64,000 nucleotides of DNA from Raillietiella orientalis (lineage: Eukaryota). The stretch covers positions 2,356,001 through 2,420,000 of the forward strand of contig JAYWIR010000020.1 in NCBI GenBank assembly GCA_036172245.1, read 5' to 3'. The notes under the pieces were generated by a model. It made no database searches, had not been told where the DNA came from, and saw nothing but the letters and a program-made list of their open reading frames with translations. The translations under genes and the position numbers were made by a program. Within the stretch, counting starts at the first letter, position 1; the number at the start of each line of letters is the position of its first letter. Shown here piece after piece: positions 13,791 to 54,304 of this stretch.

Positions 13791-13837
13791 TCTTCCGGGA
13801 AAGGGAATCCTTCGGTGGAGTGACCCGCTTGGTTTAT

Positions 13838-15180
13838 CACCTGGTCACACCGAGATGTTTATAAAAAAGAGACATACATCTGTAGGGCCATCGGCCTTAC
13901 ATCGTCCGAAATGCTCGGAACCTGCCGAGTAACCGGCACGCAGGCCGGCGAGGTCCTCCTCGGCAGAGGAGGGGGAGGGGAGAGCAAACAAAAATAAAAA
14001 TAAAATAAAATATATAAGTGTGGATAGGGAAGGGATCACCGGGTGCTCTAGGACGTCCTCTGCATCCTTTCCGGGACTCCGGCAAGTCCCATCAGAGTAT
14101 GCGCCAGGTGGGGGCGTCTGGCTGTCGTCCGCAGGAAGCGCAGAGTGAAACAGATGGCACCTCTATCGCGCCGTCCTCCTCTCGCGTAGCTCCAAGCCGC
14201 CACAATCACACGGAGGCATCAGCAAAGAGCTGCCGGAGATGCGGGAGCAGAAAGGGCGTCGCGCACGAAGAGGTCCTTCATCGCGTTCCTGGGATTGTAC
14301 GTCCATTGGTTCACCAAGGGCCGTTGGGTAACGCAACTACAGGGACGGAGGGCAACACAGTCTACAAGCAGGTGGAGGAGCTAGGATTCCCGCTTCAACG
14401 CATCTGCAGCAGTTGGAGTCCACTGTCCCCCGGGTCCAGTGAGGCCAGCGGGCGTTGCATGGGAGGCCCCCGTGCAACAGAAAAAGTACCGACTCCTGCC
14501 ACTTCAGGGGTAGGTCCAGGCTGTTCTTCAGCTCTGGGGTCACTCGAGGTCTTCCTGTGGGATTCCCAGCACCTTGCCCCAGCACAATAGTCCTTTCGGT
14601 GGGGCACTTGGGGTCGCAGCGTCCGTAAGCTGGTCCGTGATCCAACAACCTAACTTCTTCGTCTAAACACCTTTTTCGCAACTGACCTCCCATTTGACCG
14701 GTTGGTTACTGCCCACGTACTCCCTGAGGGAGGAGACTGCCGCGGCTAGGCAGGTTCTTTGCGCCCAAGCACACGTGGTGGGCTGCACGATGACGTCCTT
14801 CAGGGAGCGCCTGTTGTAGAAGGAGTGCAGCAGTCGCTGCCTCATCACCGGTCTCGCTTCCATGTTCTTGGCCCACGTGCGAACGGTTTCCTGCAACCAG
14901 GCACTACCGTTCGCGGGCTGGAAGAAGATCCAGTTGTTGGTCCTGATTAGCTTGGCCATTCTCTGGAGCTCCAGCCTGCAGCTGGACACGCTGCGTCTGC
15001 GCCACAGCTCCAGGAACGAAGACAGTCCCGCGTAGCCGGTGGCTTGCTTGACCAGGTATCGTGCGGGCCCTCACCAGTTCGTGCTCCAAGGCTTCGCCAC
15101 GATAGCAAGCATCTTCCACTGGAGCTGCCGCTCCAGGCGCTCCAGAGTCAGGAGGCGGAGACCTCCTTAGCGACGCGGAG
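13838..15180 (-). mobile_element. L1/Tx1-type non-LTR retrotransposon 3' fragment (post-RT region, zf-RVT, 3'UTR)
   Basis: Frameshifted PLKWQESVLFLLHGGLPC...CCRC...HLLVDCVAL zf-RVT pattern. Directly homologous to 16.2-17.3 kb (shared PANGSAWLQETVRTW and QLTDAATPSA). T-rich 3'UTR and shared terminal motif. Confidence 0.8.
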
Positions 15181-15239: not shown

Positions 15240-16104
15240 GAAGTCCTCCTGGTACGTCCTCCTCGTATCACTTCCGTCCCCCTTTTACTGCTACTCGGAG
15301 AGGAGCAAACAAAAAGCAGGGGGAGGAAAAAAAATGGTTTGTGTGCAACCTGCTTGGCGTGCCGCCCGAAGAACTCGTGGTTTTTTCCCTTTGCGTGGAC
15401 ATCTCCGTGTTCACACCACGCTGTAAGCAGGATATCCTGCTGTTTCTGTGCTGGGGATTCCAGTGCAACCAGCGCAGGCACTTGGTTTCCGGAAGAATTG
15501 CTACTCCGAGTTGTCTGAGGTGCGGGGCGATGGATAGCTGCCGCACCTTTTGTTGGAGTGCAGTGCCCTCGTGGATATTGTGGAGGCGACTCGCTCTGGT
15601 GCTCCGACAACCGCAGGACACTGCCAAGGACTTTCTGCGACAATTCTTCACAGAAAGCGAACTGAAGAAGGGTGCTGTGATTGCAACAATCGGTTGCATC
15701 CCGCCATGGTGACAGTTCGCCATGTGTTCTACTCAATTTGGCGGCGAAGAGAGGCCACCAGCATGGCAGCAGCACTCATGAGGACAGCAGAAAGGTGGTC
15801 TCACCTGCCAGAAGTCTCAATGGAGGTTTTTACCATCCAGGGTCGCTTCTAGAGAGGAATGAAGGAACGTCTTAAGCCAAAGATCCCTGTCTCCACCTTT
15901 CCCTCTTTTTAATTTATTTATTGTCCCCTCCCTCCGTTCCCTACTTTTCGGGAGCCGGCCCACGTGCCGGTGGTCATCCTTGATGAACTTTTTTTTTTTT
16001 TTACTTTTCTTGTTTTTTGAGGGGATACCCTTCTTCCCCTCAAACTTGAGGTTTGTTTGTTTGTTTGTTTGCAAAATAAATGTTCCACTGTGCCCGGGTT
16101 AAAA
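15240..16104 (+). mobile_element. L1/Tx1-type 3' fragment, divergent subfamily (zf-RVT plus 3'UTR)
   Basis: KQDILLFLCWGFQCN...PSCLRCGAMDS then, after a frameshift, HLLLECSAL. T-rich UTR with hairpin CCGGC-ccacgt-GCCGG (15955-15970). AATAAA at 16075 followed by ccgggttaaaa. Confidence 0.7.
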
Positions 16105-16164
16105 CCTCCATGGCAACAGGACAGTTCTATCCGCTGCAGTTCTATTCTAGGGAGCGGTGCTGGT

Positions 16165-17275
16165 TGACACCCGGTCACGCAGAGGAGATTATTTATAAAA
16201 CAGACCTATATGTCTGTGACATGACGTCTGACCCTGCCACGTTACTTATGAATACGAAAAGGAACCTGCTGGGATCTGGCACTCAGGCCAGCAGGGTGAG
16301 CCACGGCAGCACGAGGGAAGGGAAGACAAACAAAAAGAGAAAAACAAAACAAAAAACTGCAGTGAAAAAAGATGATGGGAGGGGGGTTCGGGAAGGGATT
16401 ACTGTGGGTTGGAGGGCGTCCCCTGCATCCTTGTAAGGATGCCGGCAAGTTCCTATTTTATGGTTCCCAGATGGGGCCATCTTGACGCTGTCCTCATGAA
16501 GAGGACAGCAAAATGGATGGGTCCCTGTCGTTCTGGCCTCCTCTGGCGTTGTTCCATGCGGCCACGATCCCGCGTAGGCAACACAGTGCTGCTAGGGATG
16601 CAGTCGGCGAGAGAGCGTCGCACACGAAGAGGTGCTTTACAACGTCTCTGGCGTTGCCGCCAGGAGTTCCAAGGATCGTGGCCAAGCGTCCCCAAAGGGA
16701 CGAGAGGGCAACACAGTCTACCAGGAGGTGCAGGAAGAATTCCCACCACCAGCATCTTTCACAGCTTGGGTTAATACATCCCCCGTATCCACAGATGCCG
16801 GGAGGGAATGGCAGGGGAGGTCCCAATGCACCAGCATCAATGCCGACTCCTGCCACTTTAAAGGGAGAGTGCGAGTGTTCATGAGCACCAGGGGCCACTG
16901 CAGGTCTTCCTTCGGAATATTCAGTAGCATACCCAAGCGCAAAAGTCCACGAGACCGAGCACTCGGGGTCGCAGCGTCAGTGAGCTGGCCCATCGTCCAC
17001 TCGCCCAGTCCTCTTCTCCATCCGGAGATTTCCACCGTAACTCCCAGCTGGCCGTAAGGTTGCTGCCCATATGCTCCCGAAGGGGGCAGCGCAGCGGCGA
17101 GGGAGGTTCCGTTTGTCCATGCACTCTTCGCGAGATCTTCCAGGATCTCCCGGAGTGCGCAGTTGTTGTTGCGCGCGAACAGGAAACGTCGTCCCTATTC
17201 CGCGCTATTTCCGCGCTGGATCCTCGCCCAGGTGCGCACGGTTTCCTGCAGCCAGGCACTACCGTTCGCGGGGCG
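16165..17275 (-). mobile_element. L1/Tx1-type 3' fragment (zf-RVT plus 3'UTR)
   Basis: PLKWQESALMLVHWDLPC...CERC...FLHLLVDCVALSSLW...RTASRWPHL; homologous to the 14 kb, 22 kb and 30 kb copies. Confidence 0.8.
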
Positions 17276-18000
17276 GCACTGGTGGAAGCCGGAAACCCTC
17301 GGATGCCTCCTCTGAATGATCGGGATTGGAAGTTGACCGTCCGACGTCCTTCCAAGAATCAAGAACCCATTCAGGGTTCCCTCCGGATGTACAAATGGAC
17401 CCTTCATCTGGTACCATGAAGCTGGTGGTTTGAATTCTCTTCAGAGTAGAAGAAGCGCCCTTCAGAGAAATTTGGAAGCTCCCTTTTGGGTTTTCTTCAG
17501 GGAACCTCTTTTTCCCTTCGGGGCTCCCTAGCCTGCGTAGGAAGAACAAACCTCCTTCCTCTGGAGTCTTCCTGGATGCAGAGGGTGATCCCTCCGGAGA
17601 GAATAAGGAAGAGATCCCCTTCTGGGTTAACTACCAAGTTCAAGAGGAACGGATTGTTTCCTGTGAATTCTTCCTGGATTCATAGGGTAGGTTCTCCGAG
17701 ATTGCCCCCTGAACTTGAAGAGCTACACGCACCCTCGGGTGGCGCGGACGTTGTTAAAGAGCTTTGCGAGACTGTTAAGGAGGCGAAGGGTTCTAGCGAA
17801 GCAAACAAAAAAAAAATCTGGAAGGAAAGCAGTGAAAGCAGAAGAACCCATGAGGAGTTCCATCGTACTGACTGACTCCCTGGTAACAACAGTTCCTAAA
17901 CTATGAAGGAGGCTTTGGTGGTTGATTTCTTCTTCCCTGCCGAAGCATCTCTGGGTGGGTGATATAGTGTGAACGTTTTGGTCACGGCTGGTCAAAACCG
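17276..18000 (+). mobile_element. L1/Tx1-type endonuclease C-terminal half and EN-RT linker, inverted relative to the adjoining 3' fragment
   Basis: Nucleotide homology to 29.1-29.6 kb (+) and 19.75-20.2 kb (-). Shared RGTD.FL and NLKS(H/Y)THP blocks; substitutions against the 20 kb copy are biased to third codon positions in this + frame. Confidence 0.65.
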
Positions 18001-21362: not shown

Positions 21363-22750
21363 TTTTATTTTCACGCGGTCGCTCAGGGGCGTTTATTGTA
21401 AAAAAAAAAAAAAAATATTCACGAAAAAAAACAGTCATGTAAAATATATATAAAAAAAATGTCTTCCTTCGCAGTGGTTTCACACGACCACTACCGAGGG
21501 AGATGCCGCCTCGGAAGCTCTCTTTCTCGTGAGCAGCTGCTTCGATGAGGTCCACACAGGAAAGGTGGGAAGAGGGGTGAACAAAAAAGAAAAAAAAGAC
21601 ACAAAAGTTCAGTTTAAAAGAATGTGTTGGGGAGGGGAGGAAAGGGATCACGGATTTCTTCCTGGCGTCCTCAGCACCCTCTGGAGGATGTTGGCAACTT
21701 CCTCCTCCACTTTTGTTGGCAGCGTTGTGGCCATCTTGCCGCCTCCCTGACGAAGGAGCAGGCGGTTGCGATGACGTCACCGTTCACCTCTTTCGGCGCG
21801 GCTGCTCGCCTCCACGATGCTACGCAGGCAGCACGGGACTGCGAGGGAGGAAGCTGCAGGCGAAGAGGTCGCGTCGCCCGCGAAGAGGCGTTGCATGACC
21901 TCCCTGCCGTTGTCCATCGTGAGTGGGGAGGATCGCAGCGAAGCGTTCCAGGACGCTCAGGAGGGCAACACGATCCAACAGCAGATGCGGGAAAGTTTCC
22001 CGTTCCCCACACCCGGCACGGTGCGTGGCCGCACTCCCCTCGTCTACTGGTGGACCGGCCTGGGATCGCCCAGCGCAACAACTGCAGTGCGGCGTCCCGG
22101 AATTCAGGGGAAGCGTGGAGCTGTCCACAAACACTGGGGGTGTTTCTGCCTGGAGGAATGTCCAGAAGTTCCTCTCAGCGACGAATTCCTTTGGGGAGGG
22201 AGGCGGGGGTGCATGCGTCAGTCGGAAATGCTGTCCAGCATCCCAGCTGCTTCTTCTTTCCCGTGATCTCTCAGGATACTTCCCATCCTGCATCGTCATG
22301 TCCATTTTGTTGTATCGTGTTGAGCGCGGCTGCAAGTGGGGTATTCGGCGCACAGGTGGTCTCCTTTCGGCAGTCCATGACTTCCTGCAACGGTCAGCGA
22401 GCGCAGTTCGAGGATCGCAGGCATCGCGATGGCTCCAGGCTCGTGCCGTTTCTTTCCGCCCACGCCCGACCCGTTTTCTGTCTCCAGGTGGCACAGTTGG
22501 TGTGACGACAAGGAAACTCATCTGTTTTCCTGGGCCAAGGCAACCATTTGTCGGAGTTGGTGCTGTCGGTGGCCATGCACGAGGAACGTAACGAGTCCCT
22601 CGGCGTCGGCTACTCGCTTGTCCAGAAGTCTCGCTAGGACTTCCCAGTGGGTGGTCCACAACTTCGCCGCTAGGGCTAATCTTCTACACTGGAGCTGACG
22701 CTCCATTTCCTCCAGAGTCGGGCTCAGCGTCTCGACGCGGCGCGCGCAAG
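21363..22750 (-). mobile_element. L1/Tx1-type 3' fragment (post-RT region, zf-RVT, 3'UTR)
   Basis: CGERETFPHLLLD zf-RVT motif. T-rich UTR. Terminal aataaacgcccctgagcgaccgcgtgaaaataaaa on the minus strand. Confidence 0.75.
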
Positions 22751-26619: not shown

Positions 26620-26970
26620 GTTTGCTCGGCAGCTTCCTTGGCCACTTCCGAAGACCAGAGCGGTCAGATGTCCTCGCCTGAACACCTACCTAAAACCAGA
26701 CCTTGCCGGCGTCCTCCAAATCATGCAGAAAACCGCCCCTATCAGAATGTGATCCTTTCCCATACCCCCAAAGTTGTTTCATTTTCATTTTGTTTATTTT
26801 TCTTTTTTTGTTTGGCCCCTCCTTTCTGCTGCCGTGGCTAATCTCACCGGTCTGCGAACCGGTAAGACGGCAGGGTATCTACAAAAAGGACGTGGTTGGC
26901 CCAACGGTCCATCCGCAAAAAACTGCTTATTTTATTTTCATACGAGCGCCCCGCTGAACCCGGGAGAAAA
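26620..26970 (+). mobile_element. Short 5'-truncated copy of the same non-LTR family (ORF2 tip plus complete 3'UTR)
   Basis: LAGVLQIMQKT matches LAGILTRMQGT and LASILNRMQRT of other copies. T-rich tract, nested hairpin 26829-26873, terminal gcgccccgctgaacccgggagaaaa. Confidence 0.75.
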
Positions 26971-27288
26971 CTTCCGAAGACCAGCAGAGGCAGCCGCGAG
27001 TCGCTCGCTGCTGCACCTCCGGATCGTAAGATCTTCCGTGGAAGAATTCTTCGCGCCACGGCGGCGGAACGAAGATGCAACCGAGGAAGAATACGAACTT
27101 CCAGCTGGTGTTTCGCCACTCCCGACTTGGCTGAAATCAAGATCAGCATCTGCGGGTTGCACCACCACGAAGAAAGTCCCACAATCGAATGGGGGGAAAC
27201 TGGAGGCGAGCAATGCATCTCACGTTTCGGTTGCGAGGAGATGGAACAGATAAACAAGCAGGACGGAATTATCATCTCCACCCGCGCT

Positions 27289-27360: not shown

Positions 27361-27527
27361 GTGAGTAATCTTAGAGATTCACTGCCACTGCTAGCTTCCC
27401 TGTGCAACTTGGACCGCCGTAGAGGGCGCGTGAGCGAAGGGACTGTTTGCATGGGGTGCGGTGGGGAGGGGAACCCTTTCCTTGTTAGTGATACTGACTG
27501 TAACCCGGTTGTTGTTGTACTTGACAG

Positions 27528-28217
27528 GTCGACCTGCTCCTGATTGTTCACTCGTTCAGTGCACTCAGCGGGGGAGTGTGCGGGATCGATTACCAGTATG
27601 GCGTTCCTCCTCCCCGAGAGGAAATTCGCAAGGAGATCTACACATTCATCGCGCCAGAAGAAGACGCTCACCCGCCCATCTACGTGAAGTCTCCCCCTCC
27701 TCCTCCGCTGACGTACAAAATCATCTTCATTAAAGCCCCCACCTCAGGCCCTCCAAAAGTCATACTGCCCCCGATAGCGGCTCCGAACAAGGAGAAGATC
27801 TTGATTTACCTGTTGAAGAAGAAACCCGCTTACTCAACGGTGCCCCAGATCCAGTACGAGTTTCCAAAGAAACCGTTCAAGCCAGAAGTCTTTTACGCCG
27901 CTTATTCAGCGCCTCAGGAAGGACCTTACAAAGCCTCCGGGCAGCCCAGCAGCACTTACGACTCCCACTACACTTCATTCAATGTGGGTTCTTCCTCAGG
28001 ATCTTACAGGCCGCCACCGTACTCCCCCACCTCATACTTGAAAGGTTTGATGATGAGCTTTGACCAGTTAGAAGAAGAAGACGAGACTTCAAGAGCACTC
28101 GTGTGGTCACTGCTGAGGCGCTGCGCGTGTTTTTCAGATGCCAGCAACGCGAAGACCTCCTCCGTTCTTCCGTCGAGCGAACTCCCACCTCCGCCGCCGA
28201 TGCTCGGGAAAACGTAG
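27528..28217 (+). CDS. Tweedle-family (DUF243) cuticular protein, exon 2; predicted ~234-aa secreted protein
   Basis: The spliced N-terminus MPSSLVDLLLIVHSFSALSGGVCG is signal-peptide-like. All four Tweedle blocks are present: KEIYTFIAPEE, YKIIFIKAP, KEKILIYLLKKKP, KPEVFYAAY. Pro/Ser/Tyr-rich tail. The C-terminus after about 28045 is uncertain. Confidence 0.88.
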   Translation, partial: VDLLLIVHSFSALSGGVCGIDYQYGVPPPREEIRKEIYTFIAPEEDAHPPIYVKSPPPPPLTYKIIFIKAPTSGPPKVILPPIAAPNKEKILIYLLKKKPAYSTVPQIQYEFPKKPFKPEVFYAAYSAPQEGPYKASGQPSSTYDSHYTSFNVGSSSGSYRPPPYSPTSYLKGLMMSFDQLEEEDETSRALVWSLLRRCACFSDASNAKTSSVLPSSELPPPPPMLGKT

Positions 28218-28599: not shown

Positions 28600-30300
28600 C
28601 ATTCCAGACGACGATTCCGCCTCCGTCCGAGGAGGCGAACTGCGCCTCGCCCCCTGCGGGCGTCCGAAGCTCCCGCAGATTCCGCAGGCGGCATCCTCTG
28701 GAGGTCGCCTGGAAGAAGCCGAACGCCCCCCTTCTGCTGATTTCTGACCACTCCCGATTCCTCCGGCCGATGGACGGACCGCTGCCTCGCCGACGGGATC
28801 CCCGGGCCTATCCTCTCCTTCCCCCATGGGGTGGACGGATCCTTCCTAGGGAGGCTGCGCCCGCTGCGTTCCCGCTTTTCACACCTGAGTTCCTGTAGAC
28901 GGTGAACTTGGGGGAATTTGCAGCGTCAGCGTTGGCGGGCCGTGTGGTTGCAGTCTCTCCCCGCTCGAGGTGGAGCCAGGCGTTGCGGGCTCGAATCCCC
29001 AAATGGAGGATCGAGTCGAGAAATGGATGGCGCATCATGGGCTCCCTGCAGGACGGCAACGCTGGCTGGCCTGTGGGTTTCGGGTGCGGCGCTGCTTCCG
29101 AAAGCCAGGAATCCCCGGATGCCTTCGTTGGATGTTCTGGATTGAAAGTTGACCTTTCGGGGTCGTTCCAGAAAATCAGGGAGCCCTTCGGAGTTTTCCT
29201 TCGCTTGTGAAAAGGGACCCTCATCGCTTCCATGGAACTTGTTGATGCCCTCGGAGGGGTTGCCTCACCAGGGTGCAAGAGGAGCGCTGCTTCCTCCGAG
29301 GGGTTCCTCCGGAAAGAATAAGGAAGAGGTTCCCTTCGTGGTTTTCCCTATCAGGCTATCGGGCTTAAGGGGAACGGACTTTCTGGATGCAAAGGTGGTC
29401 TCCTCCCGCTGTACCCCCTGTAACTTGAAGAGTCACACGCATCCTTGGGAAGTGTAGACGGTGTCAAAGGGCTTTGTGACCCCCCCTATTCCTCAAGAGG
29501 AGGCGTGACGAGAGGCGAACAGTTCGAAGGGAACGGTTCTTCAGCACATATCGAACCAAAGAAGGAAGGAAAAAGAAATAAAGCGGGAAGGAAAGCGGAA
29601 AAAACAGGAGAACCCGAGAGCATTTCTATTATCAACAATCACGCTGGGGAGAGCTGCTCTACATCCTTCCGGAGGAGGTGACGTGGCCCTTCCACAGCGT
29701 GCTGGAACGGTGGTGCCTCAAGTGGCAGAAGTCAGCGTTGCTGGTGGTGTATGGGGGGGATCCCGTGCAAAGCGTGCCTCCACCAGTGCACACGGAAGGG
29801 GGCAGCGTGGACTCTCAGAGTGGGGCAGGTGCAGGGAGCAAGAGACCCTTCCGCACCTGCTGTTAAACTGTTCCGCCCTCCGACACTTTTGTTAACGCCT
29901 CGCGGCGACCCTAGGTATCCCGTTGGGCGGACTCAGGGACATTGTCAAGGTGCGTGCTGCACTGCCGCCAGCCGCGTCCCCCGCAGTCCTCTGCTGTCTT
30001 CGCGGGATCACGAAGTTCTGGAACGCCGGAAGAGGAGGTCGAAACGGCAGGGACTCCATCCATTGGACTCGGATCTTCCTGAGGACTGCCTCGAGAGGGC
30101 CCCACCTGGAGACGAGACAAGGACAAAACTAGCCAGCATCCTGAACAGAATGCAGAGGACGTCGGGCAGCGTCCTGAGATCCCTTCCTCGGTCCTTCGTA
30201 AAACTACCCCCCTCCCTCCATTCGTTTTGTGTGTAATTTTGTTGGTTTTTGTTTTCCCCTCCCCCACGCTGCCGAAGCAGACCTCTCCGGTCTGCGTGCC
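28600..30300 (+). mobile_element. Internally deleted L1/Tx1-type element: endonuclease and linker joined (near 29670) to zf-RVT and partial 3'UTR
   Basis: Degenerate APE-like series (LLLISDH, LAGRVVAVS), then LRGTDFL and NLKSHTHP, then LKWQKSALLVVYGG...CREQETLPHLLLNCSAL...RTASRGPHL. The UTR ends at the hairpin loop at 30300. Confidence 0.75.
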
Positions 30301-32294
30301 AATCCACTAGTCCATGTCTTTTCTTGCTGACTTCCCGACCAAGTTCTCCTCAAATTACTTCCGTGAGCAATACGGAAAGACAGGAGCACCTCAGTGAGAG
30401 ACCAAGAATTCGCGCCAAGCGGACGAAAATTAAGTGGTCACATTTCTTTCATAACAGCAACTGGTAACGGAAACAGCAGCACCAGGAAGAAAACCTCCTC
30501 TTCAGGAACTGGGACAAACAGGACTACTGCCAACTATAAACTCTACTGTGGAAGACAGACGTGATGGTCACGCTCAGGGCTTTTACGATCCCAGGTTCAT
30601 TTATCTGATCCCAGGGAATTTTCCGTTGCAATCTAAAAATAGTCCGCCACTCCCAGCAGAAAACTCACGTCCTTCTGAGAATAACTGAATTTTATTCTTG
30701 TAAAATTTATCTTGAGTTATAAAAAATAATATTTAGGAAGCTTCTAAACAACCTCAACTTTCATGCGATGCAGTGTTTTATGTATGGATGACTCGCTTTA
30801 GGTATCGAGTTCAATTTCTAGATGCTAAGCCATCGGTGTTCACGTGGTGTTTGATTTGACTGGAGATAAGAAATGAGAGCAGAGGAGGATGTTTTGCAGA
30901 TTATAAGAAGAAATCCAGAAACGGTACCGGTGACCTGGATGATGCTTTGCTGTCAGCGTCATCATTCATGGTGTTCGTTTCGAGGGTCACGAGTTAGGGC
31001 AGCCGGCATGAGGATCCTAGGGTCAGAAGGGCGCCTTTCAATATTCCAGGGCTTTCGATGGAAACAACCACTTTGATCTTGATTCAGCTCACCTGAAGCA
31101 TCTTTTGTTGCAGCTGTCTGTGTTTTGTTTTCTTGACTTCTTTCGAGCCCCTTGGACCCTCTTGCCACGCGGATTTCTTGTAACTCAGCGAGGAAAGTGC
31201 GACAGTCTTCCATGTAAAGCGGTAAATGAGCCTCGTACGACGCTGCGGATGAAGTTCAGTCTTGTGTCACAGTTTCTGCTCAGCTGTTTTCCCAAAAAAA
31301 ACAGAACACGAGCACACGATGTAAGTAGGCCGGATTCTATTACACTGAAGCTTCCGTGAAGCGCTGGAAGGTGCATTTTTCAGGAACCATCGAGCTGAAA
31401 GACTGGACTCGAAAAATCGTGGTCTTTAGAATCGCATAAACTGATTCAGCATCAAGGGAACTCTAAGGGCTCTCGCTTTCTTTACTTTGAGTCAAGTGCT
31501 AAATAAACAAACCTCAACTTTTTTTTGGTTTTTTCAAGTAAAGTAATAAATGTTATGCACTTATAACGCTTAAGATACATTTCAAGTCTTTTACAAATAC
31601 CATCCATGATCTCATCGAGTAACCAATAAGCAGTCTTCATTAGGCTGAACTCTCCCCAAAAAACATAATATTCTCGAAAAAGTCCACGTTTATTTATAAC
31701 ATGGTATTCTGGAGGTATTTGGAAAAGAGAATGACCGTATTTTTTACTCTGTACTTTTCAGTTACTTATGTACTGCCTTTAGCGCTGATCAGCTTCCTGT
31801 TATTTGAGTTCTACTTATAGCACACAGCCAAGGTTGATTTCCCCATTCCTTTGCATGATGTTCAGAATTGCTGCGAGGCTGAAGTACCAGCTGACGTCGT
31901 TTTTGAGGGCAAACGGATGATATGGGAGTGCTTTCATGTAATTCAACGATAACAAGAAAGGAGGAACGAGAAAAGAAGAAACCCAGCTCTGGAGAGCAGA
32001 AGAGCATGGCTGGAGTCATGGGACATGAAATTCAGTGGGATGCTGTAGCATCTTCTTCGGCATCTCTCAGGTCCTCTGCCGTGCTTTGGCAGTTTGCTTC
32101 CAAGCCTGAACCCTGTAAGCGGACGTTGTCAGGATGAACAGAGGAAATTCGAGGTAGCAAAAATTCATCTTCAACAGGAAAGGGGAGAAGGGAGTAAGAA
32201 AAATCTCAGGAAAGCAATATGCATGTTCTTAGGCATTTTATGGCCACTAACTTGTCAGACAGACGTGATCCAAGATTCAAAATTTCGAGAGTAC

Positions 32295-39400: not shown

Positions 39401-39774
39401 ATGGCGTTTTCACATGTACCGACGTCGTGTGTGGAAAATATTGAGCCATGCGAATTTCGCATGCATGCATGCCTCTAGCGATGCTTCCAGATCTTCACAG
39501 TTTAGCAGCTGCGCCTCCTGTTCGGTTCGTGGAAGAGCGCCCGGGCTTCTTCGATTCCCCGTTTTAGCCCAGGAGACCGAACGGAGGACGGCAGTTACGA
39601 GAGTGGCTTGACGTGGAGTCTTCGGCATCCCTTTTCCGCAAATCCTTACTCTCCTGTTGCGGGCTCTCCTTTGAGCTGCATTCCTCTTTTCCATCCTCCT
39701 GCGCCGAATCTCCGCATCTCTTCCTGGATTCCCGATTTTCGCGCATTCCGATTCGAAGCTTCCCATCTGGGAGA

Positions 39775-39990
39775 CAAACGGTACTTCAGCACTTGGCGAA
39801 CCGAAACCAGAAAAAAAAAAAAAGCCGTGAAGATAGCAGCGGGAACAAACGAATCCCCAAAGGATCAGCTGAACTCTCGTCAAGACGGAAGAATTTCCGT
39901 GGAACTAAATTGTCCTCTGTGATCTCTTATCTGTTCTGGGACCCCAAGGTGAAACAGCAGTACCCTCTTCCTGCCTCTACATCTTGAAAG
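39775..39990 (+). mobile_element. Non-LTR EN-RT linker fragment (close relative of 50005-50310)
   Basis: cagcacttggcgaacc...gcagcgggaacaaa...gtgatctc...ccccaag alignable with 50091-50305 and, more weakly, with the reverse complement of 19.8 kb. Confidence 0.65.
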
Positions 39991-40162
39991 TCTTCTGATG
40001 CTCGAAATCCAACACTGAGGGATAGGGAGTTCCTCTAAAGTGTTAGGGAGAGCTCAGTTTTGGGCTGCTTATAAACAGCTCCGAACCGAGGTCCAGAGGC
40101 GTTGTCGACTACTTTCATCAGCAGGTGCTACTCGGAGACCGGGATGGATTCATGGATAGCCC

Positions 40163-40325
40163 TGGTTCGTATGGAAATCTCCAGAACCAATCTCCAAGCA
40201 TTCTTTGATCAATGAACAGCTATACGTTTCGGTAGAAGTAGAGGATGTCAGGTCATCACAGAGTCGAGTTGTCCTGAATCTTCGTCTCGTTGCTGGACAT
40301 GCGTTCTTCAACGAGATGGACCAGT
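40163..40325. repeat. Dispersed ~160-bp repeat, copy 1 (copy 2 at 45888-46062); identity unknown
   Basis: ggttcgtatggaa...aatctccaagca...gtttcggtag...cctgaatcttcgtctcgt...gagatggacc is present at both loci in the same orientation. Confidence 0.8.
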
Positions 40326-45302: not shown

Positions 45303-45887
45303 TTAATTCCAGTTTATGCTTCAGGATAATTGGAAGGCTAAGAGTTTGCACACAGTCTCTCGCAAGTTTAATATTGAACGACGCAGAATGCAGGAAGCAA
45401 CTCCAGGTGCACTTCAGGTGCCTCCAATGCGAAACTCTCGGAACTTCATGCTCATCTTCAGATCTCTTTAGCACATCTTCGGGAAAGTATACCATCTAGG
45501 TAGTTTCGGTGACCAGCTTTCAATTCATGAGAGTCCATCTGGGCGCAGTGGGCGTCTTTCGGGGATCCTTGAAACCTGATTTTCTTGTCCAGTTCTGCAA
45601 TAGCTCTCTGTGTTTGTCAAAAGTAGTACAGCATAATCTAAGGGTTGTCGCATCAAATTCCATCCATTGGTGCATATGTGATTTGCTCCTAAGTCAGCTA
45701 CCCTTCTTGCAGGTAGCAATTATTATTCGGAGTAATTAAATCACAAATAAGAGACAACAATTATTAGAGGCGATTAAGATCTTCAGACTTGTGGTCGAAA
45801 AGGGGTAATCAGCGGAGGTTTCCAGAGGAGGTGCCAACTGCCTTCGGTAGCCGGATATTGCTTGGAGACGAAATTCATGGGTAGCAT

Positions 45888-46062
45888 TGGTTCGCATGGA
45901 AGCCTCCAGAGTTAATCTCCAAGCAATCTTTGATCAATGAAATTCCTGTGGGAAACAGCTATAAGTTTCGGTAGGAGTAGAGGATGCCAGGTCACCACAG
46001 AGCTGAGTTCTCCTGAATCTTCGTCTCGTCTCTCGACATGCGTTCTGCAGCGAGATGGACCG
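45888..46062. repeat. Dispersed repeat, copy 2 of 40163-40325
   Basis: Direct alignment, with a short extra segment in this copy. Confidence 0.8.
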
Positions 46063-50004: not shown

Positions 50005-50310
50005 TCCCTAGCTTGAAGAGTTACACTGTCGGATGGCGTGGACAGCATCAAAGAGTTTTGTGGGCTCTCCCTGAAGAGGCGAACCGTTCGTCAGCACTTG
50101 GCGAACCAAAACCAAAAAAAAAAGCAGTGAGGAAAGCAGCGGGAACAAAAGAATCCCAAAGGATTCTTTATCAGCTGAACCCTCGTCAAGACGCAAGGCG
50201 TGAATTTCCGAGAAACTGTGACGAATTCCATTGTCCTCCGTGATCTCTCTTCTGCTCTGGAACCCCAAGATGAAACCGCAGCGCCCTCTTCTTGACTTCA
50301 CATCACCTTG
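50005..50310 (+). mobile_element. Non-LTR EN-RT linker fragment
   Basis: cttgaagagttacac...gcgtggacag...gaggcgaac...agcacttggcgaacc shared with the 17.7, 19.9, 29.4 and 39.8 kb copies. Confidence 0.65.
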
Positions 50311-53470: not shown

Positions 53471-53759
53471 CAGTGGTACCTCGGTACTCGGCGGCTCATG
53501 CTCGGAACTCGACACCCAGCTCTCATGATACGAGTGAACGTTTTCTCCTCACGGTCGCTCGCGAACACTTCCCTATGCGGGGCCTCCCGAACCCTCCCCT
53601 CTTTTGCACTCTCTTCGCATTTCAAGCGTTAATCCTGGGTCCTAAAAGGGTTGAAAGTGATACTCCGAAGCCTAGAAAGGAACTCGTTCGGTATTCGTTG
53701 GTTTCGGCACTCGTCACGAGTTACGGAACGAACTACCGACGAGTAGAGAGGTACCATTG
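53471..53759. mobile_element. Tc1/mariner-pogo (Tigger-like) MITE
   Basis: 24-bp imperfect TIR cagtggtacctcggtactcggcgg vs caatggtacctctctactcgtcgg (reverse complement of the right end); TA on both flanks (53469-70, 53760-61). Confidence 0.85.
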
Positions 53760-54200: not shown

Positions 54201-54304
54201 CACTCGGAGGCGCATGCTCGGAACTCGGCACCCAGCTCTCGTGAAACGAGTGAACGTTTTCTCCTCACGGTCGCTCGCGAACACTTCCTTATGTGGGGCC
54301 TCCC
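54201..54304. repeat. Partial second copy of the 53471 MITE left arm
   Basis: catgctcggaactcg.cacccagctctc...cgagtgaacgttttctcctcacggtcgctcgcgaacacttcc is nearly identical to 53497-53588. Confidence 0.85.

Follow-up and report, generated by a model that had tools for sequence, protein, structure and literature searches.

A retained 3' hairpin with compensatory changes in a family of decayed non-LTR-type retroposons from Raillietiella orientalis

The subject of this work is a small hairpin in the 3' untranslated region (3'UTR) of a retroposon family of the non-LTR (non-long-terminal-repeat) type, found in a 64,000-nucleotide stretch of the Raillietiella orientalis genome (assembly GCA_036172245.1, contig JAYWIR010000020.1, positions 2,356,001 to 2,420,000 of the forward strand), hereafter the window. 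Six decayed, 5'-truncated copies of the family (A to F) lie in the window; among them an inner hairpin is retained with compensatory changes, and the copies are insertions of the kind produced by target-primed reverse transcription (TPRT). The inner hairpin is probably constrained. A tentative reading, to which I give somewhat less than an even chance, is that it constitutes a cis-acting element of the sense RNA in one lineage group of the family (A to E), most likely belonging to a tail signal through which the ORF2 protein (ORF2p) that the element encodes, the reverse transcriptase (RT), picks its RNA for TPRT, as in long interspersed nuclear elements (LINEs) of the stringent type. All results rest on six dead copies inside one 17-kb stretch. 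An earlier note on this DNA had named five places, whose sequences and coordinates read exactly as given there and which all belong to the family; its count was one short, as a profile of the 3' region brought up copy F on the minus strand (E 4.6e-16).

The hairpin, or what is left of it, reads as follows in five of the copies:

13922..13966, minus strand: nested stem-loop of copy A; outer stem of 8 bp, CTGCCGAG (13966-13959) with CTCGGCAG (13929-13922); inner stem CCGGC (13948-13944) with GCCGG (13937-13933); G·U pair 13949/13932; hexaloop CUGCGU (13938-13943).
16266..16309, minus strand: stem-loop region of copy B; inner stem CTGGC (16287-16291) with GCCAG (16276-16280), the hairpin being 16291-16276, loop CUGAGU; outer stem with 6 of 8 pairs.
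26829..26873, plus strand: nested stem-loop of copy C; outer stem of 7 bp, CTGCCGT (26829-26835) with ACGGCAG (26867-26873); inner stem of 6 bp, ACCGGU with ACCGGU (26846-26863), loop CUGCGA.
30269..30302, plus strand: copy D; outer 5' arm CTGCCGAAG (30269-30277); inner 5' arm CCGGU and loop CUGCGU (30287-30297); decayed 3' arm GCCAA.
15954..15971, plus strand: copy E, inner hairpin only; CCGGC with GCCGG (15955-15970) plus a G·U pair, loop CCACGU; no outer stem.

The inner hairpin measures 16-18 nt and consists of a G/C stem of 5-6 bp closed by a hexaloop of the form C-N-N-N-G-N; it is intact in four of the six copies. In the inner 3' arm of copy D the U·G pair is kept and two pairs are broken, and similarity to the other copies is gone after about 30303. 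As the earlier note had stated, the hexaloop keeps C1 and G5, which are invariant in 5/5 copies. Along the inner stem, pair 2 changes from C-G to U-A in copy B, pair 5 forms a series from C-G (A, B, E) through U·G (D) to U-A (C), and at the sixth position copies A and E form G·U, copy C forms A-U, and B and D have no pair; in the outer stem, pair 7 is A-U in A versus U-A in C. The nested stem-loop that had been described as conserved thus stands for its inner part, present in A, B, C and E, but not for its outer part, which is complete only in A and C: it pairs at 8/8 positions in A, 7/8 in C and 6/8 in B (with two internal mismatches), is reduced to a 5' arm in D and is missing from E. The outer stem is therefore uncertain and the nested form weakly supported.

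Evidence for constraint comes from a scan for shared hairpins in a 401-column alignment of the 3'UTRs of the five copies A to E, in which stems of 5 bp with loops of 3-12 nt had to occupy the same aligned columns. The inner hairpin is the sole one common to at least three copies; it occurs in four, with two covarying pairs. Among the 72 column-defined hairpins, 69 are confined to one copy and 2 are found in two copies. In 1000 column shuffles a hairpin in at least four copies was obtained 0 times, and one in at least three copies 5 times. Likewise, no hairpin (0/287) was common to at least three copies in a 1325-column alignment of A, B, D and F. Copy E keeps 14/16 positions of the hairpin block, its flanks being 42-62% identical to the other copies. 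A degenerate pattern of the inner hairpin matches the four complete copies only and no shuffled sequence, the pattern being derived from these same copies and thus not independent of them.

Predicted folding differs from copy to copy. In folds of the whole 3'UTR, the pair probability of the inner stem amounts to 0.85-1.0 in C, 0.53-0.79 in E, 0.48 in A and 0.0 in B. The nested structure is the minimum-free-energy (MFE) form of copy C, and the MFE of copy A with short flanks favours a competing CCUCCUC/GAGGAGG helix. RNAalifold, proposed in the earlier note, returns the inner hairpin alone for all five copies, but the nested form only for A, B and C.

That the copies are the 3' ends of a non-LTR-type retroposon is supported by the target-site duplication (TSD) of copy C, by a common 3' end with variable 5' extents, and by a frame-shifted open reading frame (ORF) that encodes a CCHC knuckle; the identity given in the earlier note is in this respect borne out. 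The copies are laid out as follows:

14036..14954, minus strand: copy A, what is left of the ORF2 C-terminus, frame-shifted; knuckle ...CCRC...HLLVDC..., then ...ASPAALC / CLRVIVAAW...FLRTTARRPHL...LAGVPERMQRTS*.
13833..14035, minus strand: copy A, 3'UTR, from the in-frame TGA ending at 14036 through polypyrimidine tract and hairpin to an 89-nt tail; the 3' end is placed by alignment to the TSD-defined copy C and is to that extent presumptive.
16164..17309, minus strand: copy B, ORF2 C-terminal remnant and 3'UTR; complete C-x2-C-x7-H-x4-C in ORF 16497-16976; stop TAA ending at 16399.
21363..22480, minus strand: copy F, ORF2 C-terminus, stop TGA ending at 21648, polypyrimidine tract of 104 nt, terminal GACCGCGTGAAAATAAAAG.
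26644..26658, plus strand: upstream TSD of copy C (ACTTCCGAAGACCAG), 15 bp, perfect.
26659..26969, plus strand: copy C, 5'-truncated insertion of 311 bp; 3'UTR 26753-26969 (217 nt); ends ...CCCGGGAGAAA.
26970..26984, plus strand: downstream TSD of copy C, the identical 15 bp.

Since its perfect 15-bp TSD sits exactly at both ends of the homology, copy C is a 5'-truncated target-primed insertion; its target site is not AT-rich. A search for TSDs found no repeat of at least 10 nt at A, B or E and only a chance A-rich 11-mer at F, copy D having been left out. The 3' end that the TSD defines reads ...GGGAGAAA (GAGAAA), with three A and no poly(A) tail, and the aligned 3' ends of A, B and F carry short A-rich motifs; no terminal short repeats and no terminal microsatellite are seen at the 3' end. 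Such a short A-rich end does not look like that of a poly(A)-dependent L1. Each of the six copies is a 3' fragment that does not exceed about 1.2 kb, E being about 0.6 kb long and A, B and F at least 1.1 kb; the window's self-comparison and profile searches indicate that stop, UTR and tail are common to the copies and that the 5' extents differ. In the self-comparison, A (13917-14917) matches B (16261-17272) with 66.5% identity across 1037 nt, and a longer profile, for which A, B and D were combined, matched F at 21547-22480 (E 6e-66), C at 26641-26970, and E at 15350-15634 and 15775-15971.

Some neighbouring sequence also recurs. The stretch directly 5' of B (17265-17863) is found again, inverted, 5' of D (29079-29629), in four pieces at 72-87% identity, and some 400 nt in between are lacking relative to B; if this stretch belongs to the element, the layout is the one expected for a 5' inversion by twin priming. 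The upstream stretch of A and F differs from that of B and D: the upstream part of copy F (22582-22722) is a 68.5% match to A 15012-15152. Within its full span (21363-22722, minus strand), copy F holds an open frame of 287 amino acids (21823-22683) that includes the knuckle remnant CGERETFPHLLLD. Copies E and B are convergent, with a (GTTT)n/(CAAA)n microsatellite at 16050-16075 between their 3' sides.

The translations of the copies give a frame-shifted ORF with a knuckle C-x2-C-x7-H-x4-C, and the C-terminal CCHC knuckle of LINE ORF2 is defined as C-x1-3-C-x7-8-H-x4-C. The knuckle is complete in B (C-ERC-x7-H-LLVD-C) and interrupted by frameshift or substitution in A, D and F; no Pfam model matches it. 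It is followed by the family peptide ...ASPAALCCLRGI.AAW...FLRTA.R.PHL...LAG(I/V)L.RMQ.T, and in A, B, C and F (4/6) the frame is closed by a T(G/A)A stop within the motif GT(G/A)ATCCCTT, that codon being AGA in D and E. A profile search against 1.84 billion representative sequences returned three matches at E<=0.001, of which the only true outside relative is an 87-residue fragment (P0001, E 3e-20) that spans the same C-terminal peptide and confirms the reading frame up to ...LAGILERMQRT; the other two, P0002 and P0003, are repetitive, unrelated proteins. Longer protein relatives were not found with either ORF 16497-16976 or the family protein alignment as query, P0001 itself retrieved only P0001 at near lengths, and a search with P0001 against metagenome, genome and viral contigs gave no relative. 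In 277 ORF queries against Pfam (some ORFs sent twice) there were 0 matches to RT, endonuclease or zf-RVT models, bearing in mind that the RT region may be absent from such short 3' fragments; the same queries returned only two DUF243 ORFs and sub-threshold noise. The family is accordingly assigned to no LINE clade, and the L1/Tx1-type lineage named in the earlier note is a putative one.

The 3'UTR itself has a regular order, namely the stop codon within the motif GT[G/A]ATCCCTTCCC, a polypyrimidine tract, the GC-rich hairpin segment, and a tail of 89-102 nt. The polypyrimidine tract, 70-104 nt long, with 76-83% C+T and T-rich before it turns C-rich, follows directly on the ORF2 stop (e.g. 13967-14035, minus strand, in A, and 26753-26828, plus strand, in C) in all six copies including F, and is the most consistently kept feature of the UTR; in copy A it is 83% pyrimidine over 70 nt. 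The inner hairpin lies about 75-90 nt into the 3'UTR and 89-102 nt before the 3' end (96 nt in copy C). Within the tail there are a second, weaker hairpin, a motif like TTTTATAAA and, at the terminus, GACC-N-GGUGA-A-rich; the 89-nt tail of copy A carries TTTTATAAA and GTGACCAGGTGATAAA. A TATAAA/AATAAA-like motif occurs 3' of the hairpin segment in A, B and F, ahead of the terminal motif. The terminal GACC-N-GGUGA motif with its short A-rich end is found in A (13833-13850, minus strand), B (16164-16180, minus strand) and F (21363-21380, minus strand), and in a looser form in C (26955-26969, plus strand); it is possibly here that the RNA is actually primed. The earlier view that the UTR around the hairpin is barely alignable was wrong for its upstream part, as the stop-codon blocks GT[G/A]ATCCCTTCCC are conserved as well as the hairpin is. 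Still within the last ORF2 codons (...LAGIL.RMQ...), and in B and F only, there is another small hairpin, CAUCCU-N4-AGGAUG, at 16420-16440 (minus strand) in B and as a G·U variant at 21675-21695 (minus strand) in F.

If the inner hairpin serves in RNA recognition, the sense-strand RNA would fold the 16-18-nt structure in vivo, and ORF2p, the element's reverse transcriptase, would bind it; the bound hairpin would then select the RNA for TPRT and be needed for retrotransposition, the outer stem, where present, holding it out from the long polypyrimidine tract. On the same assumption, copy F would have a tail of its own, since its equivalent GC-rich segment contains other hairpins (CCGAGG-9-CCUCGG and GUGGU-8-ACCAC), which fit tails that change between lineages. 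The claim that the structure is maintained across divergent subfamilies accordingly extends to A, B, C and E, but not to F.

Several observations weigh against recognition by the inner hairpin, and most of them speak for a functionless origin, that is, an ancestral GC-rich palindrome passively kept in some copies, whose few paired changes would be coincidental, in part CpG transitions, and picked post hoc. Copy F is without the CCGGC hairpin, its segment being neither alignable nor matched by the covariance model. In copy B, the predicted MFE structure is a competing 8-bp helix, CCUGCUGG/CCAGCAGG, in a different register, and in D the motif is broken. The per-copy folding z values (-1.9, -2.0, -0.8, -0.5 and -1.1 against dinucleotide shuffles) stay within about 2 standard deviations. 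The covariation test, made on the five-sequence alignment from which F was left out as not alignable there, yields a score of 0.200 versus 0.145 +/- 0.044, with 68/500 shuffles as high, which is not significant; pairs with double changes number 3 versus 1.8 in shuffles, 133/500 being as high. The hairpin block is 66-74% identical among A, B and C versus 56-70% for the T/C-rich tract, barely above its neighbours. The double change of copy B turns a CpG of one arm into TpG and a CpG of the opposite arm into CpA; in DNA with CpG methylation, such transitions are the most frequent mutations. As for the outer stem, 6-bp stems common to two copies amount to 11/198, so that it is unexceptional. Furthermore, only five sequences are alignable, and as all copies are dead, their comparison partly reflects decay after insertion. 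Finally, the hairpin lies some 90-100 nt from the 3' terminus and is not adjacent to it, which the hairpin of L2 and CR1 tails is.

Against passive retention stands the presence of the inner hairpin in 4/5 alignable copies, an extreme outlier with regard to both the 71 other hairpins and the 1000 column shuffles, as well as the preservation of its block in copy E despite divergent flanks. In addition, two copies have exactly two stem substitutions each, in both cases on partner positions and complementary, for which a rough chance expectation of (1/9 x 1/3 to 0.6) squared gives <0.005. Over the whole window the observed/expected (o/e) ratio is 0.905 for CpG versus 0.546 for TpA, which is strongly depleted; given this CpG ratio, CpG decay is a weak alternative source of paired transitions, and it is ruled out as a full explanation because, moreover, the double change of copy C is not at a CpG. 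The compensatory changes first read from these copies hence hold as observations (two inner double changes, a U·G intermediate, an outer A-U/U-A swap), but without significance in the shuffle test on five sequences. On the whole, I regard the functionless account as unlikely, yet as one that has to be taken seriously.

It is also conceivable that the hairpin is selected for another step of the life cycle, such as transcript stability, 3'-end processing, nuclear export, translation, or host-protein binding in which the adjacent polypyrimidine tract takes part. The same conservation applies to this case, and so do the distance of the hairpin from the terminus, the pyrimidine tract, present in every copy, that directly precedes it, and the TATAAA/AATAAA-like motif 3' of it in A and B (and in F as well); the separate terminal GACC-N-GGUGA-A-rich motif could be the priming signal instead. 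Such a role appears quite improbable, as neither a known host-factor motif nor a matching Rfam family was found, and as pairs of RT and tail that co-evolve show lineage-specific replacement of the tail, which is the pattern offered by copy F. Scarcely credible is a function at the level of DNA, in which the CCGG-containing inverted repeat would be a protein-binding site or a structure of the complementary DNA or antisense strand: the five core pairs are all Watson-Crick in A, B, C and E, thus strand-symmetric, but the G·U and U·G states at the sixth and fifth pairs (A and E; D) pair on the sense-strand RNA only, and it is not obvious what DNA function a 3'UTR location would serve.

Two other known kinds of structure were considered and rejected: a microRNA precursor, for which about 45 nt is too short, and a triple-helix clamp of the ENE (element for nuclear expression) type, as the U-rich tract is not inside a stem. 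Rfam gave nothing at the hairpins, either at gathering thresholds over the whole window or at E<=5 over 13.5-30.5 kb, and a covariance model run over the window with filters off returned the five training copies only, the next best hit scoring 10.4 bits (E 2.8); the same search showed no short interspersed nuclear element (SINE) sharing the tail in the 64-kb window. The DNA pattern of the hairpin occurs at 121 loci of metagenome contigs, which look like unrelated GC-rich sequence: the T-rich upstream tract is present at 0/121, and the closing CGGCAG at 1/121, at 69% GC.

Elsewhere in the window, which has the look of arthropod DNA, two plus-strand ORFs encode Tweedle/DUF243 cuticle domains, at 307-777 (E 3e-9) and at 27525-28214 (E 8e-13), the latter 0.55 kb 3' of copy C. 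Unrelated interspersed or local repeats are found at 39771-39983 / 50076-50304 (77%), 40148-40322 / 45873-46061 (81%) and 53486-53588 / 54202-54304 (93%).

Among known retroposons, CR1 has a 3'UTR hairpin plus an octamer microsatellite. The present family resembles it in being a LINE family with 5' truncation and a 3'UTR hairpin, and differs in lacking the terminal microsatellite. Stringent LINEs require a cognate 3' stem-loop bound by ORF2, as demonstrated for zebrafish L2 elements (PMC4176376, in excerpt). Like the tails of UnaL2 from eel and of ZfL2-1 and ZfL2-2 from zebrafish, the present hairpin is a short stem-loop in the 3'UTR whose loop is conserved and whose stem seems to be preserved by compensating substitutions; it varies between lineages, as it should if every ORF2 recognised a tail of its own (PMC4176376, same excerpt). 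Unlike them, it lies 89-102 nt upstream of the 3' end, in an element that has no terminal repeats and ends in GAGAAA.

Lineages of the L1 clade with stringent recognition and conserved structured 3' ends have been described too, namely L1 elements of monocots and green algae that have SINE partners (PMC3472496, in excerpt). An L1 reading of the present family would for this reason not be unprecedented; these elements would serve as its precedent on condition that the family is L1-like. It is already established that conserved 3' stem-loops occur in stringent LINEs, among them some of the L1 clade (PMC4176376, PMC3472496).

A further resemblance concerns the loop. In a pseudo-triloop, residues 1 and 5 of a hexaloop pair across the loop, preferably as C-G, and CUGUGC of the hepatitis B virus (HBV) epsilon hairpin is an RT-binding example (PMC1636360, in excerpt). 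As in HBV epsilon and the 5' hairpin of foamy virus, another pseudo-triloop hairpin to which an RT binds, C1 and G5 are found in 5/5 loops of the present family, 4/5 of which read CUG-N-G-N like CUGUGC, and the bulged residue 6 is U in 4/5. The closing pair, on the other hand, is C-G (A, B, E), U-A (C) or U·G (D) rather than 5'G-C3', and copy C has A at position 6; according to the excerpted part of van der Werf et al., a loop-closing pair other than 5'G-C3' and a non-pyrimidine at position 6 each abolish the detectable pseudo-triloop (PMC3884659). The pseudo-triloop suggested in the earlier note thus agrees with the C1 and G5 of all five loops but not with their closing pairs; it is not supported for the family hairpin, and the resemblance is a lead only.

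Very doubtful, for the time being, is the more specific idea of a LINE RT that selects its RNA via an internal hairpin some 90-100 nt from the 3' end, with a CUGNGN loop like that of HBV epsilon, behind a long polypyrimidine tract and in an element ending in a few A. If true, this internal-hairpin architecture would differ both from the type with terminal stem-loop plus repeat and from the poly(A) type, and its CUGNGN loop would be convergent on the loops bound by hepadnaviral and spumaviral RTs. In the more modest case that the hairpin is real as a recognition element, it opens no new question and adds an arthropod family to the LINEs with a specific recognition hairpin in the 3'UTR; its 16-nt inner part would then be a compact handle by which to find further copies of the family and any SINE partners, and to test the specificity of RT for RNA.

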